Positions 8,822 through 34,919 of a DNA stretch of 64,000 bases are shown in pieces. The DNA is from an uncultured Verrucomicrobiota bacterium. Its GTDB lineage: Bacteria; Verrucomicrobiota; Verrucomicrobiia; CAZIPW01. How positions within the stretch are numbered: the stretch's first letter is position 1; the number at the start of each line of letters is the position of its first letter. The stretch is taken from NCBI GenBank assembly GCA_964541675.1, contig CAZIPW010000003.1, forward strand, positions 22,770 to 86,769, given 5' to 3'. A program made the translations under genes and the position numbers. The notes beneath the pieces were generated by a model. That model made no database searches, was not told the origin of the DNA, and saw only the letters and a program-made list of their open reading frames with translations.

Positions 8822-8861
8822 CGAACTTAGGTTAGGCGGAATAGACTTAACTCAACTGAGC

Positions 8862-10169: not shown

Positions 10170-10178
10170 GCAAGATTA

Positions 10179-13965: not shown

Positions 13966-14976
13966 CCGGTGGGGCCCTTCGGCCATTTCAAGTTCGTCCC
14001 CGAGATGGTCCTGAATAATCCAGGTCGGGCGGTGTTTGACTTCCTCGAAGAGCCTCCCCAAATATTCGCCCTGAACCCCCATACAGATCAGCTGTACTCC
14101 TCCCATAAAAAGTACGCTCATCACAATAGTGGCATACCCCGGAACAGGCCCCCAACCATAGGTCGCAAAGAAATTGCCGAAGATTCTTTGTAGCAGGGTG
14201 AATATGATCCCCACTAGAGAGAGACCTGATATCCAAAAACCCAGCATGGAAGTCAACCGCAAAGGAGCTGCCGAAAAAGATAAAATGCCGTTTAGCGCAA
14301 GTTTATTCAATTTTCTGAAGTCATATTTGGACTTGCCAGCTGCCCGCGCATTCCTTTCATAAACAACGCCTATTTGTTTGTATCCCACCCAGGCCCTCAG
14401 TCCCCGCACAAAACGTTCGCGCTCAGGCATTTGTTTGAGCGTTTCTATCACCACTCTATCCATCAGACAGAAATCACCCGCATCCAAAGGCATCTTAAAA
14501 TCCACCATCCGGGATATCAACCTATAGAAGAACCAGTAGGAAAACCGCTTCATCCAGTTCTCTTTTCTTTTGGCACGCACAGCATATACTACCTGGTAGC
14601 CTTCTTTCCACTTCGAGATAAAATCTGCAATCAGCTCCGGCGGATCCTGTAGATCTGCATCTACCACAACCACCGCATCCCCTTTGGCCAAGGAGATACC
14701 GGCCGATATAGCCGGTTGGTGACCAAAATTGCGGCTAAACCTGACTGCGCAAAAACGATTATCTCTCAGGTTCTGCTCTTTTATAAGCTGCCAGGAACCA
14801 TCTGTTGAGCCATCGTCAACAAGAAGAACCTTCCAGGACACCTCCCAAGACGCGGCTGTTTTGGTTATCCTTTTGAAAAGCTGAGGAAGTACCGCCTCCT
14901 CATTATAGCAGGGCACCACCACGGTAATTGAAGACATCATTCCTTGATAGGCCAAATGCGACCCGTATGCAAGCAT
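13960..14976 (-). CDS. GT2 polyprenyl-phosphate sugar synthase (GtrB/CsbB/DPM1-like glycosyltransferase)
   Basis: VVVPCYNEE..LLVDDGSTDGS..VDADLQDPPE (DxD) motif and two C-terminal TM helices, the typical architecture of GtrB-type bactoprenol-sugar synthases. Confidence 0.85.
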   Translation of the reverse strand: MLAYGSHLAYQGMMSSITVVVPCYNEEAVLPQLFKRITKTAASWEVSWKVLLVDDGSTDGSWQLIKEQNLRDNRFCAVRFSRNFGHQPAISAGISLAKGDAVVVVDADLQDPPELIADFISKWKEGYQVVYAVRAKRKENWMKRFSYWFFYRLISRMVDFKMPLDAGDFCLMDRVVIETLKQMPERERFVRGLRAWVGYKQIGVVYERNARAAGKSKYDFRKLNKLALNGILSFSAAPLRLTSMLGFWISGLSLVGIIFTLLQRIFGNFFATYGWGPVPGYATIVMSVLFMGGVQLICMGVQGEYLGRLFEEVKHRPTWIIQDHLGDELEMAEGPHRL

Positions 14977-15016: not shown

Positions 15017-15403
15017 TCAATAAGACAAGGATGGTCCACCACTTGTCGATGTCACAGCCGTCTTTTGATTGAGATTTTTGAGGCTATAGGTATATCCGCT
15101 TGGTATATAACTGGACAGTGTTGAAGCGACATATCCCAAATATTGGTTCAGCGCGCCGTATTTCAATGCATTGGTCTTGGCATTGAAAGAAGCATGGGCG
15201 GCGTAACCATATTCCAATAGATATTGAGACTTGGCTGAATTGAGAATTATGGCTCGGTTGCTTGCATTGCTGTTTGAAGCCACTCCCTGCGCCCAGCTGA
15301 AAAAAGGCACAGCCGCAGCCAGAAGGAGTGCCATCAGAGAAATGACAACCATTATCTCTATCAAAGTAAATCCGCTTGCCCTATTAATACTTGAGATAGA
15401 CAT
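15017..15403 (-). CDS. type IV pilin-like pseudopilin (128 aa)
   Basis: Prepilin N-terminus SGFTLIEIMVVISLMALLLAA (G/FTLIE class III signal). Confidence 0.7.
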   Translation of the reverse strand: MSISSINRASGFTLIEIMVVISLMALLLAAAVPFFSWAQGVASNSNASNRAIILNSAKSQYLLEYGYAAHASFNAKTNALKYGALNQYLGYVASTLSSYIPSGYTYSLKNLNQKTAVTSTSGGPSLSY

Positions 15404-15788
15404 CTTTTATATGCATATTACGCGGGGCCGGATTGTTCCCCGATGAATCGGGGTCCGGCTCATTCCAGGAAAGTGTAAGCGCCAACTTTTTTAATGTCGA
15501 CGCTGAACTCTGTGTAGTGGCCATAGACGCCGTGTAAGCCACTCCGTTGAGATAATATCCTTTGGTAATTCCAGATACCGTCACACCTGCACGCCAGCCC
15601 TCCCCTATCCTTCTGCTCTGCAACAGCGCCTCATTTCTATCCTGTTGGACAAGCATCGACGAGGACATTCTCATACTTCCATAGTAAAAACCCACCAGAA
15701 ACGCCGCCAGCAATACCGACATAGCCATGACTTCCAGGAGGGAAAATCCCTCCGTGGGGGAACTTCTTTTACGGGTATTAACGCGCAT
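15384..15788 (-). CDS. type IV pilin-like pseudopilin (134 aa)
   Basis: Prepilin-type N-terminus TEGFSLLEVMAMSVLLAAFLVG. Confidence 0.65.
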   Translation of the reverse strand: MRVNTRKRSSPTEGFSLLEVMAMSVLLAAFLVGFYYGSMRMSSSMLVQQDRNEALLQSRRIGEGWRAGVTVSGITKGYYLNGVAYTASMATTQSSASTLKKLALTLSWNEPDPDSSGNNPAPRNMHIKDVYLKY

Positions 15789-15789
15789 A

Positions 15790-17031
15790 TTAGTGGCCGG
15801 CCGAGTGCATCAGCACTTGCCCTATTCCAAACAACGGCAGGAATATTGCAAACACAATCACACCGACAAACACAGCCAATACTATAGTCACAGCAGGCAC
15901 AATCGTTTGCTGCAGACGATCAATCACCACCTCCATCTCCCTCTCAAAGGTCTTGGACAGGCGATTCAATACTTCTTCTATTTCGCCCGATGCCTCGCCA
16001 GACTCCACCGCAGCCGCCAACCGATCGCCCATCCCGCCAAACTGATCCCCGTGGGATTGAAAAGCTATCGTCATGCTGTCACCCTTGTTGATCATGTCGC
16101 AAATCTGGGCGAAAACACGCTCAAAATAAACTGTGCCCGTGGATCTTCCCGCTATGGTAAGCGCCTTCGCCATTGGAATGCCAGCCCCCAACAATACAGC
16201 CAATGTTCTACAGCCATTTGTAATCGCGGATTTTCTCAGGAATTCGTTTATCATCGGTATAGTCAACATGGCCCGGCAGTACCACATTTGATATGACAGC
16301 CACTTGATGTAGTTGGCCCAGATGATCACCAGTACAATTGGCGCTATCAGCAAAATGGGGTATGACTGCAGAAAGTCAGATATGGCAACAACAAATTTTG
16401 TGATCCCAGGCAACTGGCCGCCTAGGTTGTCATATATTGTCTTGATCTTGGGAATCAAAACCGCCGTGAATATATAACCTACCACGCAGGCCATCACGAT
16501 TACGATACATGGGTACGTAAGCGCTGACTGCAGCTGACGCCTATAATCAAGCCGTTTGGAGAGAACTCTGACCAATTCCGAAAATGTCTCTCCGAGGGTA
16601 CCCGTGCTTTCCCCTTCTTCGATGAGTGCCAGCGTTGTGTCGTCCAGAACATTCTTGTGCCTGGCGAATGCCGCGTGCAGCAGCTCTCCACTCAATAGTC
16701 CGTGCACAATGCTCATTGTTATGATTCTAACTCCCAGCTTCGCAGTCGCACGCGCCTGTAAAAGGAAAGCCTTCACCGGATTGAAACCGACCTGCATCAA
16801 CGGAGACATCCCTTCAAAAAAAACAACCTGATCTTCCAGACTAAAGCGTTTACTATAGCTCTTGACCATCTGATCAGCCCGCTTCTGGGGAATGACGCCT
16901 ATACTGAGTATTTTTTGCGGTACGCCGACAGAAATAAAAGAGTCGACCTCCTCCCTGTTATACGCGGGTATCAGCCACTTCTTTATTTTGCCCGTTCTTG
17001 GATGTTGTGTAGTTACCCCGTATATTTTCAT
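15790..17031 (-). CDS. pilC: PilC/GspF-family inner-membrane platform protein (413 aa)
   Basis: Size, three TM segments and the duplicated GspF cytoplasmic domain pattern; 2 nt from the upstream pseudopilin gene. Confidence 0.8.
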   Translation of the reverse strand: MKIYGVTTQHPRTGKIKKWLIPAYNREEVDSFISVGVPQKILSIGVIPQKRADQMVKSYSKRFSLEDQVVFFEGMSPLMQVGFNPVKAFLLQARATAKLGVRIITMSIVHGLLSGELLHAAFARHKNVLDDTTLALIEEGESTGTLGETFSELVRVLSKRLDYRRQLQSALTYPCIVIVMACVVGYIFTAVLIPKIKTIYDNLGGQLPGITKFVVAISDFLQSYPILLIAPIVLVIIWANYIKWLSYQMWYCRAMLTIPMINEFLRKSAITNGCRTLAVLLGAGIPMAKALTIAGRSTGTVYFERVFAQICDMINKGDSMTIAFQSHGDQFGGMGDRLAAAVESGEASGEIEEVLNRLSKTFEREMEVVIDRLQQTIVPAVTIVLAVFVGVIVFAIFLPLFGIGQVLMHSAGH

Positions 17032-17153
17032 AGATATTGCAACAATAAGAAGCCTAGTTGCTCTACGACGGAACTCTTTCGTGGGTTAAGCCAGGAATGA
17101 TCTGAATAAAAAGCCCCTGGAAATTTCCAGGGGCTTTTCAAAGCAATTTGCGA

Positions 17154-17705
17154 CTAGTAGCCGAAACCGGTAGTAGAGCGACCGGTAACAGTCCAGTGAC
17201 GAACGTCAGTAAAAGCTATCTTAATGCGCTTACCTAAAGCTGTAAATGAGGTCGACGGCGCGATAAAAGGATCGCGCGTGGGGTTCGGGGCTGTAGTAAC
17301 AACAGTCCAGCCTTTTACGAGATCCTCTATAACCCCCGCAGGGACTGATGCATTGGTCCAAGAACCCGGGTAGTTGATTCTGCCACCTGCTACTGGTTTG
17401 GCCCAGTTATAGGCACTTGTTGGACCACTAGAATAAATGTTGGCCCCTGTTGTACTACCTGCCGTGGTATCGGCACCAAGGGCTATCCAGCGCGCAATCG
17501 CGCTAGCCACCACCTGTGCATCGCGCTGTTCGGCTGTGGCTTGCGCCCACATGGTGTAATTTGCCACATATGGCAAGGCAGCTACTATCAGTACAGCCAT
17601 GATCGCTATCACGGCCAGCAACTCTACGAGGGTAAAACCTCTACGGGTTTGAAAGTTGTTCATAGGCATCATACTATTTAGATAGTTTATATTAACGGTA
17701 TGCAA
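17154..17705 (-). CDS. type IV major pilin candidate (183 aa)
   Basis: N-terminus RRGFTLVELLAVIAIMAVLIVAALP, the canonical type IVa prepilin leader plus a hydrophobic alpha1 helix. Confidence 0.8.
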   Translation of the reverse strand: MHTVNINYLNSMMPMNNFQTRRGFTLVELLAVIAIMAVLIVAALPYVANYTMWAQATAEQRDAQVVASAIARWIALGADTTAGSTTGANIYSSGPTSAYNWAKPVAGGRINYPGSWTNASVPAGVIEDLVKGWTVVTTAPNPTRDPFIAPSTSFTALGKRIKIAFTDVRHWTVTGRSTTGFGY

Positions 17706-17734
17706 GACTTTTCTTAAAGGGAAATATATCTCTA

Positions 17735-19948
17735 TTATGTCAGTTCCAGATCGAGTTCCGCGTTATGGCTCATCACTTCATCAAAGTCCGTACGCCCCGA
17801 TATAACCTGTCTTAGAGCCTCAGAAAAGAGCGGATGGTATCCGGATCGCTGGGCTGCGCGATATATCTCCGTACCGGGGACTTCTCTTGCTATCAAGTCT
17901 TTGATTTCTAAAGATACCGGGCAGAGTTCCATTATGGCACGCCTTCCAGTATACCCTGTGTTTTGGCAATTATGACACCCGTTGTGGCCAAAGACCATAC
18001 CCTCCCCCTTCAAAAACTCATCCATGATGGTCCGAAGGGGTTTATTTAGAGAACAATTGTCTGGCATATAGTGTGCGATAATTTTTTTTTCTCTCTCTGT
18101 AGAGGGGCGGATCAGTTTACAATCACAGAGTTGTCTGATGAGTCGTTGGGCCTGCAGTAATATCAGACAGTCCGCTATGTAAGATGACTGTATACCCATA
18201 TTACGGAGTCTGCCGACAGAAGCTATCGCATCGTTCGTGTGGAGCGTTGAAAGTACCAGGTGTCCGGTCAATGCCGCTCTGATAGCCTGTTCAGCCGTCT
18301 CTTCGTCACGAATCTCTCCCACCATCACAATATCCGGGTCATGCCTGAGTACGTGCCGCAGCAAGCGGCCAAATGTTAACTCTATTTTGCTATTCACGGC
18401 TATCTGTTTGGCTCCATTGATCTCTATTTCTGGTGGATCCTCCAAGGTAATCACATTTACGTCCGGGGTATTGACCGTATTCAGCATGGCCGCCAACGTG
18501 GATGTTTTACCGCATCCCGTAGGCCCTGTTACCAGGATCAACCCATAACTGTGTGAGATGGCTTGCTTTATGATCAGCTCCTGTTCTGTAGGTAACGTAA
18601 GATCCGCCATTGTCTTGATTGTCACGCTCTTGTCCAAAAGACGCAGAGCCACGCTCTCAAACTCTCCAGATGGAATAACGGAAACACGGATCTCCACCTT
18701 TCTCTCCCCCACCTTGACCGTAAAGGTTCCGTCTTGCGGTAACCGATGTTCGGCCACATCCAAGTCTGCTTGCACTTTTATGAGGGACACAACCGCGGAA
18801 TAAATGTTATAGGGCAGCATCGCCAGGTCCACCAAACTTCCATCCACACGCAGTCTGAGCCTCATCTTATTATTGAACATATCTATATGCAAATCGCTGG
18901 CCCGGCTGACTGTGGCACGGTAAAAAGCATAGGAGAGTATCTGCCTTGCATTATTGCCGTCCAGTTCCCTGATCTTGGCAATGGCATTGGCATCAATGGA
19001 GAAAACCTCTTCTTTCCTCTCATTATCCTCATCATCGGCCACTTTGACCGCCGCCTTGCCCTTGGATTGGTCCAGAATCAGGCGGATCATCGGTTCCGTA
19101 ACCGCGCAGGCAATCACCTGTTTGAATGTATTGTCACTGTCCAACGTGCGGGCATTGAGCTCGTCCAAAAACTTTCCGGCCTGGGAAAGCGAAGGCAGTA
19201 ACATATAGTACGTGTTGGCCAGCCTTGCGTAACAAACAGCCTGGTATTTCTCCAACATAACCTCCGGAATGGTTTTCTGCGCCTCCTCGTCCACGCTGAT
19301 CGCCCTGATCGGCACCATTGGAGAGTTGCGCCCCAGGGCTATAATACCACACAGAAGGTCCTCTTTCCCCGCCATCAGTTTCTCCAGTTCCTCGATACTT
19401 CTGTTGTCGTGTTCGTCAAAATCATACAAATAGTGGTTTCTAACCAGCCACTCCAGCAGCTGCAGGGGATTGCCGAACGCTGCTGCGGGCGGCATGGGGA
19501 ATTGCGCCTGTGCGCCCCCATCCCCCAGTAATTCCAGACATATTTGTTGATATTTTCGGTAATCCTCAAACCCTATCGTTACCTTGAAGAAAGTGCCTTC
19601 CGGCAGTCCCAATGTATCACGAAAGTTGGGATAGAAATGCCCCAAGACCAAAATAGACCCTACATTGGCAACAGGTAACCACGGCAGATCAGATGACGGC
19701 GCCATATGGTAATATTTTTGCATATGCCTCACTATCGCGCGCACCGTTCCCGTGGGTACCGCGCTTGTACAGGGAAAGAAGGGGGCTTTGAATCGCCTGG
19801 CCAACAGATTGATGACATTCGCCTCATTGATACCCAGCCGCGAGAGCACCTGCAGGTGGTTCTCTCCCTGGGCATGATCAACCTTGCCACCGACCAGCCG
19901 GATAATCTCCCGTGCTACTTCCGGATAACTGTTACTGGCCGCCGTCAT
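17735..19948 (-). CDS. pilB: PilB/GspE-family assembly ATPase (737 aa)
   Basis: Walker A GPTGCGKTSTL, VGEIRDEETA, TGHLVLSTLHTND and a C-terminal tetracysteine motif (CDC..C..C..CQNTGYTGR). Confidence 0.9.
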   Translation of the reverse strand: MTAASNSYPEVAREIIRLVGGKVDHAQGENHLQVLSRLGINEANVINLLARRFKAPFFPCTSAVPTGTVRAIVRHMQKYYHMAPSSDLPWLPVANVGSILVLGHFYPNFRDTLGLPEGTFFKVTIGFEDYRKYQQICLELLGDGGAQAQFPMPPAAAFGNPLQLLEWLVRNHYLYDFDEHDNRSIEELEKLMAGKEDLLCGIIALGRNSPMVPIRAISVDEEAQKTIPEVMLEKYQAVCYARLANTYYMLLPSLSQAGKFLDELNARTLDSDNTFKQVIACAVTEPMIRLILDQSKGKAAVKVADDEDNERKEEVFSIDANAIAKIRELDGNNARQILSYAFYRATVSRASDLHIDMFNNKMRLRLRVDGSLVDLAMLPYNIYSAVVSLIKVQADLDVAEHRLPQDGTFTVKVGERKVEIRVSVIPSGEFESVALRLLDKSVTIKTMADLTLPTEQELIIKQAISHSYGLILVTGPTGCGKTSTLAAMLNTVNTPDVNVITLEDPPEIEINGAKQIAVNSKIELTFGRLLRHVLRHDPDIVMVGEIRDEETAEQAIRAALTGHLVLSTLHTNDAIASVGRLRNMGIQSSYIADCLILLQAQRLIRQLCDCKLIRPSTEREKKIIAHYMPDNCSLNKPLRTIMDEFLKGEGMVFGHNGCHNCQNTGYTGRRAIMELCPVSLEIKDLIAREVPGTEIYRAAQRSGYHPLFSEALRQVISGRTDFDEVMSHNAELDLELT

Positions 19949-21873
19949 TGTTGTCCTTGCTGTTCCTCTTTCTTGATAACTTCGTCGGTCTCAGGATCAA
20001 TCACATTTTTTCTCCACGCCCGATTGCGGTCCACCTCCTTGTTGATCCAGTCTTTCGACAAACTCTCGGTGCGTTTGACGAAGGTGCCATCCGAGGTGCC
20101 ATCCTTCATGATGGTCGGGGTTATAAACAAATAAATACTGGAATGCGTCAGGGAGCGCGACTTGTTTTTGAACAGGAAGCCAAACAGCGGAAGGTCGCCA
20201 ACCCCCGGCAATCCACTGGTGGTATTATCATCCTCCACGCGTTCCAGCCCTCCTATGGCCAATGTATAGCCCTGCGGCACGTCAACCATGCCGCTATAGG
20301 TGGAATTATTCGTGGTCACCGCGCCGGTATATTGGTTAGCTGTCGTATTGGCGGCCTGCGTTGATATCTGTATTGAGATATTGAGCTGCACCAGGGTGTC
20401 ATTGATTTGGCGGGGAGTAATCGAAATGGTCGTACCCACCTGTTGTGTTCCAAGTGTTTGCGTTCCAACCACCGCTCCGGTTGTATTGTCCTGCGAAACC
20501 AGGTGGGTCGCACTCGCCAGCGGTATATTCTCCGTGGTCTGAATCTGCACCTGTTGGCCGTTTTGCGTCACCACGCTAGGATAGTGGGCAATCTGACTAT
20601 CCGTCTGACTCTGGAAAGCGGAGAGACCTACCTGAAAGTTCTGAGATTGAATCAGCATACCCGTTGGAATATGCAGATGGTTCGTGTGACCCAGATTCAA
20701 CGTGGTACTTCCATTCGCGGGCACTATTTGGACAGAGTTTCCATTGCTCCAATCAAAACCCATGCTTGTACTGGGATCTCTTGAGCTTTCCAGGAACATG
20801 GCTTCTATGGCAATATTGCTGGTCGGATTGTCAATAGCTTTAAGGTATTGTTCTACCCATTGGTGTTGTATGGCTGTGGCAATGACGAAAAGTGTATTGG
20901 CATCGGCATCGTAGCTGACATAGGTGTTCTGGCTGACGTTGACTGTATTGTTCGCGTTGCTCTTGCTACTGGTATCTGAAGGCTTTGTATCCGCGACATT
21001 GGCAGTGGTTTCTACTTGGCCATCGGAACCTATCGTTCCGCCAAAAGTGACATCTATTCCCAGGATCTCCTGCAGCGTATTCATGACCACCTGCCCGGTG
21101 GTGCTCGTTGCATTGGTACTCGTGGGGGTTATGCTTGCACCATTTGTCGCGGTAGACGTACCGCTGGTACTGTTACTGGTTGTAGTGCTGTTAGTAGTGG
21201 AGTTTGTCGACGAAGCGCCATTGGTTCCGCTCGTACTGGTGCTAACGGTGCCCGATCCGCTGGTTGATTGTCCCAACTGAATATTCTTCAGCTTGTAGAT
21301 CTTGGCGTAATACTCCGCCTTATCTTTCTTGCGGATAAACCAAAGGCCGTCCTGTTCGTAGATGCCCAAGCCAAAATTGTTTGCCAGAACCTCCATGGCC
21401 TTAAAGGGCGGCATATGCATATTGACCGTCACTTTTTCCGTGTCCAATGCTGGCAGAATGTAGTTGATGCCCGCAGCCTCCGCCAAATATCTTAGAGCGT
21501 CCCTGATAGGTACTTCTTCCATGCGGATATCTGCCACGGGCTGCCTAAGGAGCTTTTGACGCGGCGACACGATCACGCTCTCCACACTTATCTTGTTGGT
21601 AAACTTGCCATCGTTGGGTGCCACCTGTGCGGCCACCCCATTGCCATTGCCTTGATCAGTCTTTATTTTCTCATTGGCTGCAGTCTTGGGCACGGTTGCC
21701 ATCTTGTCTTTCTGCATAAATGGCGGTAAATCAAACTGATCTGATTGTGCCGCTGCCGCAGCAGCCTGAAGGGGGCCAGACTGTGCTCCCAAGGGGCAAA
21801 TCACCACGAGCAGCAAGAGTAAACCCCACCCAAGATTAGCGAAAATACGGATAATGGACGATGACTCTTTCAC
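19945..21873 (-). CDS. pilQ: secretin (PilQ/GspD family, 642 aa)
   Basis: Signal peptide; C-terminal secretin motif GLPGVGDLPLFGFLFKNKSRSLTHSSIYLFITPTIM; internal Ser/Thr/Asn-rich linker. Confidence 0.85.
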   Translation of the reverse strand: MKESSSIIRIFANLGWGLLLLLVVICPLGAQSGPLQAAAAAAQSDQFDLPPFMQKDKMATVPKTAANEKIKTDQGNGNGVAAQVAPNDGKFTNKISVESVIVSPRQKLLRQPVADIRMEEVPIRDALRYLAEAAGINYILPALDTEKVTVNMHMPPFKAMEVLANNFGLGIYEQDGLWFIRKKDKAEYYAKIYKLKNIQLGQSTSGSGTVSTSTSGTNGASSTNSTTNSTTTSNSTSGTSTATNGASITPTSTNATSTTGQVVMNTLQEILGIDVTFGGTIGSDGQVETTANVADTKPSDTSSKSNANNTVNVSQNTYVSYDADANTLFVIATAIQHQWVEQYLKAIDNPTSNIAIEAMFLESSRDPSTSMGFDWSNGNSVQIVPANGSTTLNLGHTNHLHIPTGMLIQSQNFQVGLSAFQSQTDSQIAHYPSVVTQNGQQVQIQTTENIPLASATHLVSQDNTTGAVVGTQTLGTQQVGTTISITPRQINDTLVQLNISIQISTQAANTTANQYTGAVTTNNSTYSGMVDVPQGYTLAIGGLERVEDDNTTSGLPGVGDLPLFGFLFKNKSRSLTHSSIYLFITPTIMKDGTSDGTFVKRTESLSKDWINKEVDRNRAWRKNVIDPETDEVIKKEEQQGQQ

Positions 21874-24043
21874 TATAGTTCTCCAGAGCCTGTCCTACGG
21901 CACTTTTATAACTAAAATTAAGCGAACATGAAGGGGCCACTGCACCCGACATATTGCTTAAACTTGCCGCAATTCCCTCTCCTGTGGCTACTCCGCCATA
22001 GAAGGTGGCTGAGCCTGTACCGCTTGAATAGGTACTTTGAGGAGTCGTCAGGAGCGTCCCCAGAGGGGAACCGGCCAGAACAAAGGCTGGCCAAGTGCCA
22101 TTGCTCGCCACCGTTACCGTACTGTCCATTTTCAACACCAAGTACCCTGGAAACCAGCTTGGAATTACGGTCAATTTTTTCTTCAATGCCAGCGCTCCGT
22201 TAATCGTAATAAACACCTCATTTGTAGCCGGCACGTAGAAGAAGCCGAAAGTGTTGATCGAGCTTCCCACAATGGTCTGTGTTTGCGTGGTCGTGTCATA
22301 TGCGGTCAGCGTGATGCCGGAAGACAAATATGTATTATAGTTCACGGTGCCTGTCGAAGTATTGATATTTAAATCCAATCGTTCGCTTCCGGTTGAAGTG
22401 GAGTCCACATAGGAAGACGTATTGGTAAAAATTACATCCAGGTTCCCACTATTAAAACTGGTTGTTGTAACATATGCCCCTATCACGCCACCGCCACAAG
22501 AATAGCCCGGATAGGTCCCTATCACCCCTTCACCCAGAGACAACTCACACCATCCTCCAGCTCCCGAGGAAGACAGATGAGCTCCACCTACTGTCGAACT
22601 GTTCAGAGACGGGGATAAGCTGCCGTTTCCCCAGCCGGTAACCGTCGAATCGCTTGACGTAAATCCGGTACCGCTGCTACCACCGAGCGTTCCAATCCTG
22701 TTGAAGGTATCGCTTACCCATGTGGTTCCCTTCGTGTAAGCACTTAGGGCAAAAGGGTATGCCCAATTAAGCGCTGACGTCGCACTGCTACCGTTGTATC
22801 CCAGATCGGCCAGTCCGACCACGCCATAGCTTGTCGCTGCCTGTACTGGTGCCAAACTACTGGCGCTGTTCTTTGTCCACAGATACAACATACCGTCCGT
22901 GGCAATCGATATGGGTGCGAGCGCCCCGCTGCCACTACTGTCCATGATCACAATCCCCGCCGCCATGGCCGTGGGGGTCGTACAGTGAATGTACCACTTC
23001 TTATACTGATAGTTGCTTGATATTGATAAGGTCGTTAGGTCAATGATTACCCGTGTTTTGCCATCGAATGTTCCCGTGTTAATCGCGGCAGGCACCGTTG
23101 TGCCACCAACTGGGGCACTAAGTACATTGACGTACGTCCCGTCAAAGCTCAGGACTATCGCATTGGGGTCCAGGCTGTACATCTGCCTGTTCTGCAGTGT
23201 TGTACCGGTACTGGCATAAGCGCTGATCGATTCTGGTCCCAAGGCAGACATCCCATAGGTGCTCAGAAGATTATTGAATGTCGGCGGGGAGGCTCCCATA
23301 AGATAGAAGTCACTCGAAACCTGGGCTGACGGATTAGACGAGGTCGCACTATCAAATTGCACCGCCGGGCCTCCGCACAGGCTAGAAACATTGATCGTAT
23401 CCAAAAATTTATTGTAGCTGCTTGTGAAAGTGGTATTGGAATTGTATCCATTGACAATTCTGTAGGCCGCGCTGAATGGCAGGAAGCACGTGGGAATCTC
23501 TTTGTACAGATAAAGGGTCCTGCCATATGTGAATGCCTGGTTGTTCCATGTTGGAGTATAACTGGCGCTCAAGGCTCCCACAGGCACAAACCCCTGTGCG
23601 AAACTGAGTGGATGTTCCAGAAAATTATCGTAGCCTATGCTCGTGTTGCTTGTTTTTGAAAAGGGGAACGTTGCCGGCCAGGAGCTGACTGTTACGCTTC
23701 CTGCGTTAGTTACAACACTGCTGTCCGGGTACGCCCAGAGCTCTGCTGATTGCAGGGCTGTCTGATAATGACCCGCGTCAAATCCAAGGATAACAGTCTG
23801 AGACAAGCCGTGGCTTATATAGTCCTTCAACAGGTAGTCAAACTCACTCCTGTGAGCCATATCCATCCCCTCCGTCAGGATCTTCACCTTCCCCTGTTGT
23901 TCGACAAAAGACTGCTGTACCACCGCGTTTGTGATAAGAAAATACAGTCCTGTCACCATGATCGCCAACGCTCCCACTGCAAATAGAAAGATCAGCAGCA
24001 GGCTGGCTTTTGATGGCTGCACTGTATAGGTAATGCTTTGCAT
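21836..24043 (-). CDS. membrane-anchored Ser/Thr/Gly/Asn-rich protein (735 aa); possible pilus-associated adhesin or tip factor
   Basis: Single N-terminal TM helix LLLIFLFAVGALAIMVTGLYFLI followed by about 700 aa of low-hydrophobicity S/T/G/N/Y-rich sequence; embedded in the pilus operon. Confidence 0.55.
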   Translation of the reverse strand: MQSITYTVQPSKASLLLIFLFAVGALAIMVTGLYFLITNAVVQQSFVEQQGKVKILTEGMDMAHRSEFDYLLKDYISHGLSQTVILGFDAGHYQTALQSAELWAYPDSSVVTNAGSVTVSSWPATFPFSKTSNTSIGYDNFLEHPLSFAQGFVPVGALSASYTPTWNNQAFTYGRTLYLYKEIPTCFLPFSAAYRIVNGYNSNTTFTSSYNKFLDTINVSSLCGGPAVQFDSATSSNPSAQVSSDFYLMGASPPTFNNLLSTYGMSALGPESISAYASTGTTLQNRQMYSLDPNAIVLSFDGTYVNVLSAPVGGTTVPAAINTGTFDGKTRVIIDLTTLSISSNYQYKKWYIHCTTPTAMAAGIVIMDSSGSGALAPISIATDGMLYLWTKNSASSLAPVQAATSYGVVGLADLGYNGSSATSALNWAYPFALSAYTKGTTWVSDTFNRIGTLGGSSGTGFTSSDSTVTGWGNGSLSPSLNSSTVGGAHLSSSGAGGWCELSLGEGVIGTYPGYSCGGGVIGAYVTTTSFNSGNLDVIFTNTSSYVDSTSTGSERLDLNINTSTGTVNYNTYLSSGITLTAYDTTTQTQTIVGSSINTFGFFYVPATNEVFITINGALALKKKLTVIPSWFPGYLVLKMDSTVTVASNGTWPAFVLAGSPLGTLLTTPQSTYSSGTGSATFYGGVATGEGIAASLSNMSGAVAPSCSLNFSYKSAVGQALENYSERVIVHYPYFR

Positions 24044-24044
24044 A

Positions 24045-24980
24045 CTAGTACCACTTCCCTATCGTAGCTGGCGCTGTTTGCCCAGTACTGCCGTTCTCAG
24101 GTGCAAACGTCCAGAAGAAAGAATTTGCGCTTGTGCCCACAGCTCCCCATACATCTGCCGTCTTTTTGACTCTTCGCGCCTGATTGCCTGTTTGAATATC
24201 CTTGAGCGCCGTACTGAAGGCAGTAGGGAAACGAAAGACTATAGAGTTCTTGCTACCATTTCTTGTAATGCTGGGAAACGTGGTGGTTATGGTACTCTGA
24301 TCGGAGGCCGTAAATGAGGCTCCCGGCGCAAAATACGAGAAGGTCTGCCCTGCAATCAACTGGCTTCCGTTATTTTCGTATCTGGTAAGCGTATACTTCA
24401 TTCCGCTGACGCCATTTTGCGTAGTCAACATATCAGTCAGGTATACGACGGCATTGATTGTTGGTACCTCGTACGATACACCTGGCGCGCTGGAAGTCCC
24501 TCCCAGAAGCACCAAAGTATAATACTGGACGGAGTTGGCAACGGATGGCTGTCCCAAAATCGACCCATTGCCCGTAATTGCCGCGTTATTTTCTCCCCAT
24601 AGGAAGAGGAAGGCACCATCATTTACAGGAGTTATGGATGTATTCCATATATTGCAATCCCCACCGTGGTTGATCACATTGATTCCCACATATATGTGAG
24701 TCAGAGGAAAACTCAAGGGGTTCCCTCCTGTAAAACCCTCAGTCAAACATGAATTGTACACATAGGCCCTGCTCGCAGAAGAAAAATCCTTTTCTATTTC
24801 GAGCATAAGCCGTGAAAGCTCAACTTGTTGCAGTTGGTTTGTCGGGAAAAGACCGTTGCTGACGCCCATGATCTGGAACATTGTCACGCTGCCAGCCGAC
24901 ATGACAAGAACTGTCAGGGTAACTGTCAGGAGCAGTTCCAGTGTTAGCCATCCCCTACTCTTCTTCTTGGTGTGGCACAT
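24045..24980 (-). CDS. minor pilin / pseudopilin-like protein (311 aa)
   Basis: Prepilin-like N-terminus SRGWLTLELLLTVTLTVLVMSAG. Confidence 0.6.
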   Translation of the reverse strand: MCHTKKKSRGWLTLELLLTVTLTVLVMSAGSVTMFQIMGVSNGLFPTNQLQQVELSRLMLEIEKDFSSASRAYVYNSCLTEGFTGGNPLSFPLTHIYVGINVINHGGDCNIWNTSITPVNDGAFLFLWGENNAAITGNGSILGQPSVANSVQYYTLVLLGGTSSAPGVSYEVPTINAVVYLTDMLTTQNGVSGMKYTLTRYENNGSQLIAGQTFSYFAPGASFTASDQSTITTTFPSITRNGSKNSIVFRFPTAFSTALKDIQTGNQARRVKKTADVWGAVGTSANSFFWTFAPENGSTGQTAPATIGKWY

Positions 24981-24991
24981 GGGTTTACCTT

Positions 24992-26059
24992 CTATCTCTT
25001 GCGGAATATTTTAACAACGGATTGTTCTATGGTAGACTGGGTGGGTACACATGATGTACCATCCTCCGGCATTTTGGAAGGGGTATATTTTCTGAAGATA
25101 GCATCCTGAGGAGAGAGCGTCTGTATCTCACTAAGCTCTTGGGTCTGCCCAACAAGTATGCCGACCACCTCGGCCTTGCGGTTTAACACCACGCTGCCCA
25201 GCAAATCCCCGTCCATTGTTGGCGAAAGTTTGATGGAATTACCCGATGACTCCCGGATAAAGCCCTCCAAGAAGCGTATCCCATCTTTCTGCCCAACAGA
25301 GTACCCCACAGGAAACACTTCCTCCGCCCGCTCAGGTTTTCGAGAGGTCAAATACAACGGGATGGATTTTATATTCACCTTCAGCAGTCCAATGCCTCTT
25401 TTGGTATCGCTCTCCACCAAAGTTGCCCTGCTGTACCCATACGGGGTCAACACACTCAGCTCCGCTCCCTGGGCTATATCCAGGGGAACAACGGCCACAC
25501 CATCCTCGTTAATAAAGAATCCATTGCCGGCCATCTCCCACACATTGTAGTTTGTTTTGCCGGCATCATCTACATCGTGCTTGAAATTAAAGAATATCTT
25601 GAAAGACTCTCCACCAAATCCGCTGGCATCGTCTTTCTGGAAAACAGCCTCCGACTGGCTGATACTCAAAATTGTCACCGTATCGCCTCCCACGGGCGCT
25701 GCAGAGTCTTTTTTCTTGTCTGTGGATTTTTCATCAGATTTGGCCGCCGCGTTGATGGGCACCTTGTCCCGCACACGGTAACTTTTGGCATCTATGACCA
25801 GCAGCGGAGCGCCGTTGGGCTGAATTACGTACCCCTTGATACGCCTCAAGAGCGCTTGCGAAAGCTCTGAATTCGAATCCGAACGAACCTCCGTAATGGG
25901 TTCGAATGGGTTAAAGCCCAGAGTCTCATCTGCGTCCGTGCTGCGATATCCCGGCTCAATGCCGGATTGAATCTCTGGGGCCGGAACCTGCGCGCACAAG
26001 CTCTGTACGGCCATTAGGCTAACTAAAACCAGCATGATCGACTTTGATGTGTTCCTCAT
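24992..26059 (-). CDS. secreted hypothetical protein (355 aa); possible degenerate trypsin-like or PilP-like accessory
   Basis: Signal peptide MRNTSKSIMLVLVSLMAVQSLCAQ; C-terminal GNSIKLSP..VGILVG reminiscent of a GDSGGP region but not conserved. Confidence 0.45.
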   Translation of the reverse strand: MRNTSKSIMLVLVSLMAVQSLCAQVPAPEIQSGIEPGYRSTDADETLGFNPFEPITEVRSDSNSELSQALLRRIKGYVIQPNGAPLLVIDAKSYRVRDKVPINAAAKSDEKSTDKKKDSAAPVGGDTVTILSISQSEAVFQKDDASGFGGESFKIFFNFKHDVDDAGKTNYNVWEMAGNGFFINEDGVAVVPLDIAQGAELSVLTPYGYSRATLVESDTKRGIGLLKVNIKSIPLYLTSRKPERAEEVFPVGYSVGQKDGIRFLEGFIRESSGNSIKLSPTMDGDLLGSVVLNRKAEVVGILVGQTQELSEIQTLSPQDAIFRKYTPSKMPEDGTSCVPTQSTIEQSVVKIFRKR

Positions 26060-27003
26060 GATTGTACCAGTGCCTTAAAATCCAGGTTGGGCTCCATTTT
26101 ATCCCATTTTCCAAATTCGATATCACTTCTGTCCTGTAGATATCCCCCGAGCTCCAAGGTCGTCTCTGAGAGGTTACCCGACACAGTCCATTTAAAGAGC
26201 ACCTTCTTTCCAAAAACCCTCTTTGCTATTACAGCGGCCTCGGCACAGTTTGCAAAAAAGACCCTTATCTGTTCTATCGTCTCGGGGCTGCTATTCTTGT
26301 CCAAGAACAACGGTGTGGCCCGAAAAACTTCCGGGGAGAACCTTTCATTGTCATAATCGAACACAATAACGTGCGCCTGGCTAACAACCGTTCCCAGTAC
26401 TATAAATTCCTCCTGTATTTTCGGATCTTCTCCACTCCAGCCCTTGTCCCCAAACATGGCATTCAAGAGTGCATAAGGCGCCAATTGGCTTCTGACTATC
26501 GTCAATCCATGGTCCTTAAGTCCTTTTTCAAGCTCCATATATGGGGCTTTATTCACCGCGAAGAGTATCCTCGTCTGACGGTCCGGCGCCATTAAGATCT
26601 GGTAGACCTTTTCCTCTTCGTAGACAGAACCTATCAGGCTCTTGGGATCGGATCTGAGTTTTGCCTCTAACATTTCGCCCTTCTCTGCCCGGGGCCCATT
26701 TTGGGCCTCACAGTACAGATTCATGGCACTATACAGCACGGCTACGCAGTTGCAGTCTGTTCTCTGCTTGAGTGTTTCACACACCTCTTCTATGGGTGTC
26801 ATCACCGGCAGGGATAATTCTTCCGGAGCGACCTCCATCCCCCTGTCAGTCTTCGTGGCAAAGGATATTTTTATCACACTTGGGCCCCAGTGCAAAAGCG
26901 CCAGCCTTTTTCCGGGAAGTCTCAAATACAATGGATATGCCACGTCTGCCGGATCAACCCGGAAGGCATTTAGCAAACTCAGATTGATTATCTCTCTAAT
27001 CAT
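26056..27003 (-). CDS. hypothetical cytoplasmic protein (PilM/GspL-like position); start revised to the internal Met (ORF track gives 27129)
   Basis: Starting at MIREIINLSL gives an ATGA overlap with the upstream gene that ends at 27000; no TM segment; position matches PilM/GspL in pilMNO-type operons. Confidence 0.4.
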   Translation of the reverse strand: MIREIINLSLLNAFRVDPADVAYPLYLRLPGKRLALLHWGPSVIKISFATKTDRGMEVAPEELSLPVMTPIEEVCETLKQRTDCNCVAVLYSAMNLYCEAQNGPRAEKGEMLEAKLRSDPKSLIGSVYEEEKVYQILMAPDRQTRILFAVNKAPYMELEKGLKDHGLTIVRSQLAPYALLNAMFGDKGWSGEDPKIQEEFIVLGTVVSQAHVIVFDYDNERFSPEVFRATPLFLDKNSSPETIEQIRVFFANCAEAAVIAKRVFGKKVLFKWTVSGNLSETTLELGGYLQDRSDIEFGKWDKMEPNLDFKALVQS

Positions 27004-27629
27004 TTGATTTCTCCTATCATCTTGTAACGGAACCCCACCGTCAATCTGACTTCTTCCGGCGATCGGGCCACCCAACGCGTTTGTACTATACGCAGGCTTC
27101 CCATCTCGTTTTCCGCTCTCCTCATCCAAGCCATCAGCTGTTGAAAGGGCCCCACCATTGTTACTTTTAGCTCTATCAGATTGCGGGACTGCTGCGTGGT
27201 TATCACTGGCGGGATCGGCATACCCGGTGGCGGCGCCCCCACAGCTCTGGTAGAAGGCATCTTGGGGCCAAGACGATTACTACGGACACCGGACTGCATA
27301 TTCAGAGGGGACACCTCAATGACGTTTACCCCAAGTTCCTCAGCCATCTTTTGGAGTTTCTGTTTCAGTTTTGACTCGTCTATTCTGCCCTCTTTATCAA
27401 GCCATCTGGCAAAATAATCATTGTAAATCTTGTCGATCTTCTGGTTCTCGGCCAATTTTTTTTGTTCGTCCTCCAGCTGTTTCTGGGATATTCTTAGCAT
27501 CTCGCCAGAGCTTTTGTATTTCTTCATCTTATCCAGCGTCGCTACGCTTTGCATGACAAAGAACCCTATGGCGGTTATGTATACCAACATCAAAATCGTT
27601 AGCGCAGGATAGTACCCCAGCTTCTTCAT
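27000..27629 (-). CDS. bitopic PilO/PilN/GspM-like protein (209 aa)
   Basis: N-terminal TM helix ALTILMLVYITAIGFFVM, then a coiled-coil region, then a C-terminal domain; this architecture is typical of pilus alignment proteins. Confidence 0.5.
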   Translation of the reverse strand: MKKLGYYPALTILMLVYITAIGFFVMQSVATLDKMKKYKSSGEMLRISQKQLEDEQKKLAENQKIDKIYNDYFARWLDKEGRIDESKLKQKLQKMAEELGVNVIEVSPLNMQSGVRSNRLGPKMPSTRAVGAPPPGMPIPPVITTQQSRNLIELKVTMVGPFQQLMAWMRRAENEMGSLRIVQTRWVARSPEEVRLTVGFRYKMIGEIK

Positions 27630-28285
27630 AGCCTCTTTTCCTTTCCGGCCACGGCGGCTCTTGGCAGATCGGGAACTTTACCCGTACTATATTTCACATT
27701 CTTGTCTCCACCCGGGTAATACTGGCTGGGCAACACAACGCTGGCATTAAGTTCCGTTCTACCACCATCCCCAACGCTCTGCTGTCTATCCTGCTGGTCT
27801 ACCCCCAATGTCGTCAGCTTGTCTTCAAAGTCCTCTGTATTTGGAATACTACCCCCGCCCCTGGAAAAGAATCTCATCATCAGAGAAAAATGCCCTTCCT
27901 CGCTGGGTTTGGCCTCCAGTGACATCTCCTGCAACCGTGTATCCCTAGGCAAAGACTTGTATATCTCCTGCAAGAAACTGCTCAAGTTATAATTTCCCCT
28001 CAGCCAACGGTTCCAGTCCTCATAATGCGTCTTGATCTCAATACTATGCGCGCCCTGCGCCTGAGTCGCCGATATCTGAGCGTTAATTTCATCCAGTTTC
28101 TTCCTGTCCTGATTTGCAAGATTATCCAGTTGGTGTTCCCGAAACACGAACACGGACCATACAGCAATACTCAACAATACCGCTATGTAGGATCCTGCCA
28201 CTATCCAACGGAAGGACTCCGGCGCGCACGGCTTGTAGTTGCGCGCACTCTTGATGTCCTGCGGGTATGTTTCGAGTAGTTGCAT
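27626..28285 (-). CDS. bitopic PilN/GspL-like protein (219 aa)
   Basis: TM helix WIVAGSYIAVLLSIAVWSVFVF followed by a coiled coil; 4-nt overlaps with both neighbouring genes. Confidence 0.5.
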   Translation of the reverse strand: MQLLETYPQDIKSARNYKPCAPESFRWIVAGSYIAVLLSIAVWSVFVFREHQLDNLANQDRKKLDEINAQISATQAQGAHSIEIKTHYEDWNRWLRGNYNLSSFLQEIYKSLPRDTRLQEMSLEAKPSEEGHFSLMMRFFSRGGGSIPNTEDFEDKLTTLGVDQQDRQQSVGDGGRTELNASVVLPSQYYPGGDKNVKYSTGKVPDLPRAAVAGKEKRL

Positions 28286-29367
28286 TATTCACCAGGCATT
28301 TGGGCCGTCACCAGCGGCAGCCATTTTTGATAAGCCATGTCATCTATCATATGCTTTGTCTTGGCTACCTCCAGCGAGAGTTTGAAATCTTGTTGACCTT
28401 GCGCCTTGCCAAGAGATATCTGCTGGCGCATACCAGTCCAGTTGCTCTTGCGTATACAGTTGCTGATGGCCGGAGTTCTCTTGGCTATTTCGTGAATTGC
28501 AAAGCGTGTCCCATTGGACAAGGTTATCAGCCTCTGACAGACGATCATCTCCAAGGCTGTGGCTAGAATCGCTTTTGTAAAATCCTGCCGATTCTCGGGA
28601 ATGAGCTGCAGATATCGTTGGACGGCTTCTTCCGGGCTCCCCGTATGAAAGGAAGCCAGCACCAGGTGTCCTGTTTCTGCTGCCTGCAGAGCCACCTCTG
28701 CTGTCAGCTGGTCTCTGATCTCTCCGACTAATATAACGTGTGGCCTCTGTCTCAGAGCAGCGCGCAACCCGGTGGCAAAGCTTTCCACATGGGTGCCGAC
28801 TTCCCGTTGGCTGTACAAGGCCGCCGTATTGTCTGGATAGATATATTCTATGGGATCTTCCAGCGTTATAATATGTTCCTTCCTCCTAGTTCCGCGCCAC
28901 TTCAGGAATGACGCTATTGTAGTTGTTTTGCCCGCCCCGGTGGGTCCACATATCAATATTAGACCTCTATCCAGCGTAGTACCCGCTTCCAACAGCTGTT
29001 CCGGCATATTAATTGAGGTTGGTTCCGGTATTCCCGTCGAGAAAGGCCTTAGCACTATTCTGTGTCCTCTCATGTGCCTGTATAGCGCTGCCCTAAAACG
29101 ATGTCCTTCTACACTTAAGGCCGCGTCGATACTAAATCTATTTTCCTTGGCATCCTCTTCTTCCAAGGTATGGTTTCTAAGCTCCCCCATCAGTTGCAGA
29201 AACTCCTCTGTATCTACGTTGAACTGGGAGTCCGAAATCAATTCTCCACGCCTTACATAGAGCAATAGCCCTTTACTGTCGACAATCAGGTCGGAGATGT
29301 CTTTATACATCTCCAACCAATGCTTGATTCTTTCCCACAAGACTGTTTCGTGAAAGCTGGCTGCCAT
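28285..29367 (-). CDS. pilT: PilT-like retraction ATPase (360 aa)
   Basis: Walker A GPTGAGKTTT, VGEIRDQLTAE..TGHLVLASFHTGS; PilT-sized, lacks the GspE N-terminal domain and has no tetracysteine motif. Confidence 0.75.
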   Translation of the reverse strand: MAASFHETVLWERIKHWLEMYKDISDLIVDSKGLLLYVRRGELISDSQFNVDTEEFLQLMGELRNHTLEEEDAKENRFSIDAALSVEGHRFRAALYRHMRGHRIVLRPFSTGIPEPTSINMPEQLLEAGTTLDRGLILICGPTGAGKTTTIASFLKWRGTRRKEHIITLEDPIEYIYPDNTAALYSQREVGTHVESFATGLRAALRQRPHVILVGEIRDQLTAEVALQAAETGHLVLASFHTGSPEEAVQRYLQLIPENRQDFTKAILATALEMIVCQRLITLSNGTRFAIHEIAKRTPAISNCIRKSNWTGMRQQISLGKAQGQQDFKLSLEVAKTKHMIDDMAYQKWLPLVTAQMPGE

Positions 29368-30094: not shown

Positions 30095-30120
30095 ATTGTA
30101 ATTTTGCCGATGAATAGGAT

Positions 30121-30959: not shown

Positions 30960-31290
30960 CCCAGATTATTCTCTGATGTCATCCGCCAGATATTGATACA
31001 TACTATATATTAGACATATAATCATATTATCTTATATACATATGGTACTATAGTATTACTATCATATAGCTATACCATACATTAGGATACATTCATATTA
31101 TATGATCATAGTAATATACAAGACTATATATAACTCGACAATAGATAGGCTGGATACTGTTCATATAATATGATAGTAATATATTATTGATGACATATCA
31201 TTATATAATATGACTATATTATAACAAACGGCACTTTCACATTGACACCACCGTGCCTCAAGTCTATCTATAGTTAAGTATCAAGATATT
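30960..31290. repeat. AT-rich region with degenerate direct repeats (TATGAT(C)ATAGTAATATA-like) upstream of parA; candidate centromere (parS-like) or origin region
   Basis: About 330 nt with more than 75% AT; repeated units atatgatcatagtaatata, atatgatagtaatata and atatgactatatta. Confidence 0.5.
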
Positions 31291-31295
31291 AAAGT

Positions 31296-34901: not shown

Positions 34902-34919
34902 TGATGGACTTGCCAGTTT

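Follow-up and report, generated by a model that had tools for sequence, protein, structure and literature searches.

The genes of type IVa pili (T4aP) usually lie at several loci, as a first-pass annotation of the DNA described here had also stated, and those type IV filament systems that occupy a single locus undergo transfer more often and are found on plasmids more frequently (Denise et al. 2019, PMC6668835). The present study concerns thirteen genes of such a filament system at positions 15017 to 29367 of a 64,000-nucleotide (nt) stretch of DNA from an uncultured Verrucomicrobiota bacterium (GenBank assembly GCA_964541675.1, contig CAZIPW010000003.1, positions 22,770 to 86,769); the whole of this stretch is referred to below as the window. 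The compactness of the cluster is thus atypical for T4aP, without being so for the superfamily. We interpret the region as encoding a retractile type IVa-like pilus, complete and at a single locus, in a rare lineage that is uncultured, and give this interpretation a probability of about 0.72. On this view the system is of a familiar kind, and what sets it apart is a form specific to the lineage, in which the accessory proteins have diverged strongly.

Several described systems are close enough for comparison. With the T4aP of Myxococcus xanthus, Pseudomonas aeruginosa and Thermus thermophilus the locus shares the PilB and PilT pair, PilC, the secretin, a stand-alone PilM-type actin fold, class III pilins and a four-pilin priming set (FimU-PilVWX in those systems). 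It differs from them by its single-locus layout, by equivalents of PilN, PilO and PilP that are unrecognisable by sequence, by an HtrA-like pseudoprotease at the PilP position, and by having no PilY1, the putative K-type pilin being itself giant. The type II secretion system (T2SS; GspC-M) resembles it in a part of the gene order, in the H/I/J/K-like set with a K-type subunit devoid of glutamate at position 5 (Glu5), and in slightly higher Gsp scores, but the present locus has a PilT, the gene of which shares 1 nt with the following one, and lacks a GspG-class major pseudopilin. The mannose-sensitive haemagglutinin (MSH) pilus (mshI-Q), a single-locus relative of T4a pili, likewise has alignment proteins followed by secretin, ATPase, platform and pilins, as well as a very large protein (MshQ) near the J/K-type pilins, which in MSH is separate from the K-type pilin. 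The MshL score is only 72 here for a cut-off of 250, and to our knowledge MSH loci carry no PilT. Akkermansia muciniphila, from the same phylum, possesses in Amuc_1098-1102 a secretin and poorly annotated pilus-associated proteins (PMC4960237). Membership of that group was considered and rejected (53.3 bits for NF042912 on the secretin, cut-off 750); the present locus has no TPR/BAM-like N-terminus, and no other NCBIfam family was found on its accessory proteins at E-values up to 0.1, which includes any model of the Amuc cluster that the library may contain.

Core machinery and conservation of the gene cluster

The thirteen open reading frames (ORFs) listed by the first-pass annotation all exist and form an unbroken, co-directional run on the minus strand, from 29367 to 15017. 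Their order, pilT-N-O-M-'P'-J-K-secretin-pilB-pilin-pilC-I-H, is given below in the direction of transcription, with lengths in amino acids (aa), transmembrane segments abbreviated as TM, and a slash marking the cleavage position in pilin motifs.

28285..29367, minus strand: PilT-like retraction ATPase, 360 aa, first gene (T2SSE, 1.1e-41)
27626..28285, minus strand: 219-aa single-pass membrane protein, putatively PilN-like from topology and position
27000..27629, minus strand: 209-aa single-pass membrane protein, putatively PilO/GspM-like from topology and position
26056..27003, minus strand: 315-aa cytoplasmic actin-fold protein, similar to PilM and the cytoplasmic domain of GspL in its predicted fold
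24992..26059, minus strand: 355-aa secreted protein with a C-terminal HtrA/DegP-like pseudoprotease domain (family profile), at the PilP/GspC position
24045..24980, minus strand: 311-aa minor pilin, at the GspJ/PilW position (class III motif G/W-x-x-L-E)
21836..24043, minus strand: 735-aa candidate modular tip pilin of GspK/PilX/CpaL type with a lectin-like beta-sandwich module (N-terminus, model and gene position)
19945..21873, minus strand: secretin with a Ser/Thr-rich linker, 642 aa from a GTG start (Secretin, 2.2e-31)
17735..19948, minus strand: PilB/GspE-type extension ATPase, 737 aa (T2SSE, 3.6e-108, residues 338-726)
17154..17705, minus strand: major pilin candidate, 183 aa from a TTG (N_methyl, 1e-7; motif RRG/FTLVE)
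15790..17031, minus strand: PilC/GspF platform protein, 413 aa (T2SSF, 1.5e-43, in two stretches)
15384..15788, minus strand: 134-aa minor pilin, at the GspI/PilV position (motif G/FSLLEV; TM 13-40)
15017..15403, minus strand: 128-aa minor pilin, GspH/FimU-like (N_methyl, 1.4e-7; motif SG/FTLIE)

This supports the compact, co-directional type IV filament cluster including PilT that the first-pass annotation had proposed. Its calls of PilT, PilB, PilC, secretin and prepilin-type pilins are likewise confirmed by Pfam and NCBIfam hidden Markov models (HMMs), and HMMs or fold comparison establish PilB, PilT, PilC, the secretin, the major pilin and the PilM-type protein as parts of the machine. The PilT-like protein matches best the PilT/PilU family TIGR01420 (1.2e-77, 261.5 bits, below the cut-off of 319.1) and carries a Walker A motif GPTGAGKT, the sequence ILVGEIRD, a His box and AISNCIRK (compare AIRNLIRE). 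For PilB the scores of GspE (401 bits) and of the PilB model TIGR02538 (388 bits, cut-off 676) are both below cut-off and assign the family level only; the same proximity is found for the platform (GspF 194 bits, PilC model 172 bits) and for the secretin (GspD 114 bits, PilQ 101 bits), again below cut-off in each case. These near-equal scores indicate divergence and not chimerism. The major pilin, which probably starts at an internal ATG (172 aa), reaches 20.8 bits with the GspG model TIGR01710 for a cut-off of 88.85. In PilB, residues 1-330 (window 17735-18750) have no Pfam match and no GSPII_E_N/MshEN-type domain, and these approximately 330 N-terminal residues are nonetheless conserved, PilB being 78% identical to its closest relative over its full length.

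The gene order recurs in seven independent loci from metagenomes or metagenome-assembled genomes (MAGs), all of one rare clade, far beyond chance: the cluster is a real, selected gene set of this clade. The succession pilT-219-209-315-355-311-735-secretin-pilB is collinear in loci L006, L086, L089 and L090 (five loci reach that far, with protein identities of 31-79%), and the shorter contigs L091 and L092 show the same order up to their ends. Sequence identity among relatives goes from 71-79% for PilB and 73-79% for PilT, the gene of which is kept in all seven loci, down to 23-47% for the 209-, 311- and 735-aa proteins. In a search of GTDB with one genome per species, the only close relative of PilB (78%) was that of L006, a MAG labelled uncultured Verrucomicrobiota; the other matches (33-45%) covered the ATPase domain only or with a part of the N-terminal region, and were mostly from Planctomycetota and Omnitrophota, with a few from Pseudomonadota and other phyla. 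The accessory families are small, with 12 clusters for the 315-aa protein and 11 for the 355-aa protein among 5.8 billion proteins, and about 7 full-length representatives of the 735-aa protein among 1.84 billion (2 matches in the initial search). Identical copies of the 735-aa protein are encoded on metagenome contigs from peat and soil, which reach 99.5 kb in length. Six of the thirteen proteins (219, 209, 315, 311, 735 and 134 aa) have no match in Pfam or NCBIfam.

The region following pilB in L006 (12406-20106) is rearranged, with pseudopilin genes on the opposite strand, then a second PilT-like gene (15275-16279, 40% identical) and five ORFs without Pfam match; no pilC is found there within 10 kb.

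Diverged accessory proteins and the 735-aa candidate tip pilin

No sequence family in Pfam or NCBIfam matched the 315-aa protein, and PDB sequence searches, with its own sequence and with the family alignments of the 315-, 209-, 219- and 735-aa proteins, returned chance matches only (e.g. tubulin, RpoD, transferrin receptor). An AlphaFold2 model computed from a 12-member alignment (predicted local distance difference test, pLDDT, 79.6; predicted TM-score, pTM, 0.77) was matched by Foldseek to BT_3980 first, then to PilM of P. aeruginosa, T. thermophilus and M. xanthus (5eox, 5eou, 2ych, 3jc8_M), to the cytoplasmic domain of EpsL/GspL (1w97, 1yf5, 4pht) and to FtsA, with E-values from 2e-12 to 1e-8; against PilM, EpsL and FtsA the E-values were 1e-10 to 1e-9 and the TM-scores about 0.4-0.6. 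The protein has no TM, like PilM and unlike a fused GspL, and at the level of its predicted fold it is a stand-alone PilM-type protein.

Both single-pass membrane proteins contain conserved blocks. The 219-aa protein has one TM at about 24-44 and a cytoplasmic head of approximately 23 residues (MxLLE..PQDIK..R.YxPCAP..FRW) conserved in six orthologues, and its gene overlaps both neighbours, by 1 nt and 4 nt. In the 209-aa protein the TM lies at 4-23, leaving almost no cytoplasmic tail, and is followed by a charged, heptad-like stretch and a conserved C-terminal block (IELKVT..GPF..L..W....E...G.L.I..T.W.ARSPEE). Neither has a Pfam, NCBIfam or PDB-profile match, and an hhalign comparison of the two families (probability 11%, covering the TM and the adjacent charged stretch only) is uninformative on a PilN/PilO paralogy. 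Of the three PilM/N/O-like proteins announced by the first-pass annotation, the PilM call thus holds at fold level and the PilN and PilO calls stay putative, as no profile links them.

The 355-aa protein, previously described simply as secreted, does carry a signal-like N-terminal segment (5-24), and could be identified further. Its family profile matches the protease domains of DegP, HtrA1, DegS and DegQ (best E-value 7.9e-6, residues 177-302), and Trypsin_2 is found at a sub-threshold 1.4e-3 here and is precomputed for five relatives, with no PDZ match in the Pfam scan. In all six orthologues the triad is lost, the His being replaced by Asp, Ala or Ser, the Asp by an invariant Gly222 and the Ser by Leu; because the three catalytic residues are all replaced, the domain is considered an HtrA-like pseudoprotease. 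The N-terminal half might, at a guess, be similar to PilP or to the homology region (HR) of GspC, though without any match. The first-pass annotation had left open that the 315- and 355-aa proteins be unrelated to pili: the former is PilM-like in its fold, and the latter is HtrA-like with no PilP match.

Class III motifs with Glu5 are present in the major pilin and in the 128-, 134- and 311-aa proteins. The call of the 311-aa protein as a minor pilin was right: the motif residues W11, L14 and E15 are invariant in six orthologues, and a TM is located at 10-36. The 134-aa protein has no HMM match above noise in Pfam or NCBIfam, and the best NCBIfam match of the 128-aa protein is GspH (29 bits, below cut-off).

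The 735-aa protein had been described as a Ser/Thr-rich, low-complexity protein anchored in the membrane and as a candidate pilus-associated adhesin. It is indeed rich in Ser and Thr (25%) and has few charged residues, but its composition, an entropy of 3.95 bits and a folded model rule out low complexity; the true Ser/Thr low-complexity stretch of the cluster is in the secretin (66% Ser/Thr in a 50-aa window, residues ~211-260). Structure prediction, as suggested by the first-pass annotation, gave a pilin-like helix (residues 13-77) followed by beta-rich domains with lectin-type folds (AlphaFold2, 16 sequences; pLDDT 67, pTM 0.71). Compared with the PDB by Foldseek, the model matches concanavalin A (ConA)-like jelly rolls, with glucanases of glycoside hydrolase family 16 (GH16) at an E-value of 1e-6 and galectin-8N and LEC-6 at about 1e-4 (galectin/GH16 range 1e-6 to 5e-4); for the galectins the TM-score normalised to the target is about 0.6 and the root-mean-square deviation 3.8 Å over ~145 columns. 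Because of these predicted fold matches the adhesin proposal is credible.

The N-terminus of the family reads (K/R)G-S-LLLIFLF..G..A..VTG.YF and lacks a Glu at +5; the absence of Glu5 is a hallmark of GspK/PilX-type subunits. The (K/R)G-S signature occupies the cleavage position in six of seven full-length relatives, the seventh (P0016) apparently having been called too short at its N-terminus. Neither N_methyl nor any pilin HMM matches the protein. Its two most conserved 15-residue segments are at the two ends, 18-32 (0.81) and 720-734 (...ERVIVHYPYF; 0.78), for a mean of 0.52, and a strand is predicted at the extreme C-terminus (726-730). The gene follows that of the 311-aa pilin after a 1-nt gap, and the same pairing, with a 1-nt gap or an overlap, is observed in six relatives. 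Weak distant relatives (E-value about 1e-4), reached by exhaustive profile search only and devoid of Pfam domains, share an RG-hydrophobic N-terminus and a PR[VIL]L-type C-terminus; their genes come directly after N_methyl pilin genes. In L087 they have PilC as a neighbour, and modular pilins are found around them in both L087 and L088. The pilin gene sets of these two loci (L087 366-7923, L088 403-8057) include modular pilins that combine N_methyl with an InlB B-repeat (Flg_new_2).

Two descriptions from other systems give a frame for these features. GspK and CpaL of tight adherence (Tad) pili have an N-terminal pilin-like domain, a large and largely dispensable middle, and a C-terminal beta-strand that completes the pilin sheet in cis (PMC13533445). 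The 735-aa protein has in common with CpaL/TadG and GspK the N-terminal pilin-like segment without Glu5, the large middle and the conserved C-terminus predicted as a beta-strand; it differs from them by the absence of detectable sequence similarity, by a host system that is T4a-like and not Tad, and by a middle predicted to contain a lectin-type jelly roll. The tip pilin PilC of Streptococcus sanguinis carries a ConA-like lectin module (PMC9934059); the association of a pilin moiety with a ConA/galectin-like beta-sandwich, a proposed tip location and glycan binding would be shared, whereas S. sanguinis has no outer membrane and no secretin, and its PilC (about 53 kDa) is smaller and unrelated in sequence. 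By analogy and from its model, the 735-aa protein appears better read as a minor pilin of GspK/PilX/CpaL type than as a generic membrane-anchored protein.

In the mechanism that we propose, the PilM-like protein and the 219- and 209-aa proteins would form the inner-membrane alignment complex, which the 355-aa protein, at the PilP/GspC position, would link to the secretin as a scaffold and not as an enzyme. The 128-, 134-, 311- and 735-aa proteins would constitute a priming complex of the H/I/J/K type, which eventually sits at the tip of the pilus. There, the 735-aa protein would be the K-type cap, anchored in the fibre by its N-terminal helix without Glu5, with its conserved C-terminus folding back onto the pilin domain as in GspK and CpaL, and would display its beta-rich middle with the lectin-type jelly roll as an adhesin, probably for glycans.

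Transcription, flanking genes and a possible glycosylation pair

From pilT to the last pilin gene, the junctions measure -1, -4, -4, -4, +11, +1, -38, -4, +29, +122, +1 and -20 nt, the value of -38 between the 735-aa gene and the secretin being counted with the GTG start of the latter. The 4-nt ATGA overlaps at 19945-48, 26056-59, 27000-03 and 27626-29 and the 1-nt overlap at 28285, as first annotated, were reproduced. Between pilT and the pilin gene, eight of the nine junctions are overlapping or of at most 11 nt; the ninth, pilB/pilin, spans 29 nt if the pilin starts at the TTG, or about 62 nt if it starts at the likelier ATG. The overlapping start and stop codons are consistent with translational coupling. 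The 122-nt gap between the pilin gene and pilC contains a further element:

17105..17134, minus strand: intrinsic-terminator-like hairpin after the pilin gene, GCCCCUGGA-AAUU-UCCAGGGGC, then UUUUUAUU

This near-perfect hairpin was found only by folding the gap; a consensus promoter and terminator scan, which stayed at background level, missed it. The fold of 17025-17160 (minus strand) has an energy of -41.9 kcal/mol (z = -4.25), and none of 200 shuffled sequences folds as well. Hairpins with a U-tract, different in sequence, occupy the same post-pilin position in L086, L089 and L090. With a strong terminator hairpin behind the pilin gene, both in the window and in three relatives, the genes do not form one simple operon, and transcription is probably at least attenuated at this point, a common arrangement for pilin genes. 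The possibility raised by the first-pass annotation, that internal terminators split the cluster, is thereby partly realised as far as a single operon is concerned and does not extend to the functional unity of the genes. Transcription would start upstream of pilT and yield abundant transcripts ending with the pilin. Expression of pilC and of both small pilin genes, and perhaps of the gene encoding a GtrB-like protein (see below), would depend on read-through or on a promoter of their own.

Three rows of neighbouring features complete the locus:

29519..30903, plus strand: divergent upstream pair of genes, 191 and 260 aa, co-conserved with the cluster
13960..14976, minus strand: GtrB-like polyprenyl-phosphate glycosyltransferase, possible 14th gene (Glycos_transf_2, 1.9e-31)
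12040..13965, plus strand: 641-aa polytopic membrane protein, convergent with the glycosyltransferase gene (at least 8 TMs; C-terminal ~230 aa without predicted TM)

Homologues of the upstream pair, neither of which has a family match in Pfam or NCBIfam, are divergent from pilT in L006, L086, L089, L090 and L091, and L092 has genes matched in size and position (181 and 259 aa) upstream of pilT. Further upstream in the window are a small ParA (195 aa, 31296-31883), the gene of which overlaps that of a 127-aa protein by 4 nt and is preceded by an inverted repeat (31088-31178), the stretch 31088-32263 resembling a partition cassette, and an ArdC-like zincin metallopeptidase (36149-36955). Homologues of the ParA, of the ArdC-like protein and of neighbouring genes (including 33465-34901, 35421-36023 and 37142-38041) flank the pilus cluster in different subsets of L086, L089, L090, L091 and L092. 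A conjugation-type type IV secretion system (T4SS) block extends from 40930 to 54475 and comprises TrbI/VirB10-like (41872-43479), CagX/VirB9-like (43492-44364) and VirB4/TraC-like (50516-53074; 22-24% identical to plasmid VirB4/TraC) genes, as well as an 897-aa protein without family match and with Gly/Ala-rich hydrophobic stretches (46026-48719). Near the end of the window (61088-63884) lies a second PilB-like ATPase of 770 aa (T2SSE 4e-86, about 28-33% identical to the first). Before it, with an overlapping junction, comes the C-terminal end of another secretin, so that one more type IV filament system begins at the edge of the window.

On the other side, the glycosyltransferase gene, of glycosyltransferase family 2, is separated by 40 nt from the last pilin gene (128 aa). 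Its product matches PgfS (7e-78) and ArnC (1e-55) in NCBIfam, and Synechocystis GtrB 5EKP (1.9e-87) and ArnC (2.8e-48) in the PDB, and has two C-terminal TMs (241-304). The convergent 641-aa protein, without family or PDB match, is a candidate periplasmic glycosyltransferase, a role that we only infer. It has a 664-aa paralogue at 55951-57945, beside a GT87/PIG-U-like polytopic glycosyltransferase (54629-55924), and these three polytopic proteins are candidate GT-C-type enzymes that possibly act as partners of the GtrB-like protein. The GtrB-like protein and a polytopic transferase could together glycosylate Ser/Thr-rich targets in the periplasm or at the surface, among them the 311- and 735-aa proteins, the pilin and the linker of the secretin; for the 735-aa protein this is plausible because the GtrB-like gene is adjacent. 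The pair formed with the 641-aa protein was not observed in L006, and the remaining loci do not reach so far. This flank also carries a phosphoglycerate mutase and flagellins. The latter are four tandem paralogues (repeat families D1 and D2, 5189-11033), interrupted by a Maf-like (MptE-like) gene (7155-8786); a second Maf-like gene is located at 57963-59807. This suggests a glycosylation of flagellins.

Alternative readings and significance

A retractile T4a-like pilus is the best description of the locus, since T2SS-specific parts are absent and PilT is the first gene and is kept in seven loci. Several points nevertheless weigh against it. The organism is uncultured, and neither a pilus nor motility nor adhesion has been observed. 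All core proteins stay below the NCBIfam equivalog cut-offs, with Gsp models slightly above Pil models for the ATPase, the platform and the secretin. A prepilin peptidase was not found in the window, where all non-overlapping ORFs of at least 90 aa were scanned except 59834-60139 (101 aa), which bears out its absence as initially annotated. The roles of PilN and PilO are proposed for the 219- and 209-aa proteins from topology, size, position and overlapping codons, and that of PilP for the 355-aa protein from position, this protein having neither a lipobox nor a match to PilP or GspC. The pilC and pilin genes are not in the same arrangement in L006 as in the window. Finally, the model of the 735-aa protein is only moderate, most confident at residues 290-445 and poor at 450-516, and the copy in the window has Ala and not Gly at the presumed cleavage site (-1).

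The partial order secretin-ATPase-pilin-platform-pseudopilins recalls gspD-E-F-G, and together with the H/I/J/K-like set and the slight advantage of GspE, GspF and GspD over PilB, PilC and PilQ it could designate a T2SS, in which folded exoproteins would be driven through the secretin by a short pseudopilus in the periplasm, with the 735-aa protein as its GspK-type cap; the second secretin/PilB pair (61088-63884) could then be the actual pilus of the cell. We consider this very improbable, as a PilT-family ATPase is the first gene, overlaps the next by 1 nt and is conserved in all seven loci, the pilin is far from the GspG cut-off, the actin-fold protein has no TM, and every Gsp score is far under its equivalog cut-off. 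Nor did the compact T4P/T2SS hybrid favoured by the first-pass annotation hold: no T2SS-specific part (GspG, GspC, fused GspL or GspM) was detected, the cluster proteins giving no match to GspC, GspM or fused GspL in Pfam and NCBIfam, and PilT and the stand-alone PilM-type protein point to a T4aP-like system. A different question is whether the pilus is cargo or a part of a conjugative plasmid or integrative and conjugative element (ICE), serving in mating-pair formation or DNA transfer like the thin pili of R64 and PAPI-1. The repeated flanking of the cluster by ParA, ArdC-like and other genes (33465-38041), the conjugation-type T4SS with its TrbI, CagX and VirB4/TraC-like genes (40930-53900), and the more frequent transfer and plasmid location of single-locus systems (PMC6668835) speak for such an origin. 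However, the window yielded no relaxase, coupling protein, integrase or tRNA and no direct repeats on the flanks, and the opposite flank harbours flagellins as well as a phosphoglycerate mutase. The 72,556 plasmids of PLSDB contain no homologue of the 315-aa protein, and the G+C content is not the same in the T4SS block (0.51-0.585) as in the pilus cluster (about 0.49-0.51). The conjugative thin pili that we know of are moreover type IVb pili without PilT ATPases. A conjugative pilus is thus unlikely, and an association of the cluster with a mobile element is possible but unproven.

Within a T4a-like pilus, the 735-aa protein could still be an inner-membrane-anchored periplasmic or surface protein (an adhesin, or a secretin- or peptidoglycan-associated factor) that is merely co-expressed. 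Its Ala at -1, the lack of Glu5 and of any pilin HMM match, and a size unusual for a pilin would fit, but the (K/R)G-S of six of seven relatives, the constant position of its gene after the J-like pilin gene, the occurrence of distant relatives in pilin gene sets and the maximal conservation of its two termini, as expected from the CpaL/GspK design, make this rather doubtful. Speculative, too, is a combination of several of the present observations, namely a mobile single-locus T4a-like branch in which an HtrA-derived pseudoprotease replaces PilP/GspC, a PilY1-type adhesin is fused into the K-type tip pilin, and the whole works with a conjugative element (ParA, ArdC, T4SS) as a PilT-powered mating-pair pilus in Verrucomicrobiota; we regard it as improbable.

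The retractile T4a-like pilus favoured here does not overturn the current understanding of type IV filaments. An automated classification would probably label the locus as generic or miss parts of it, and fold prediction combined with gene position recovers most of the roles. The repeated linkage with genes of plasmid or ICE type fits the published tie of single-locus organisation to horizontal transfer. The HtrA-like pseudoprotease found where PilP or GspC normally sits represents one design variant of the machine; the other would be a K-type tip pilin with a lectin-like module of its own, which would extend the model of a C-terminal strand provided in cis beyond T2SS and Tad pili.

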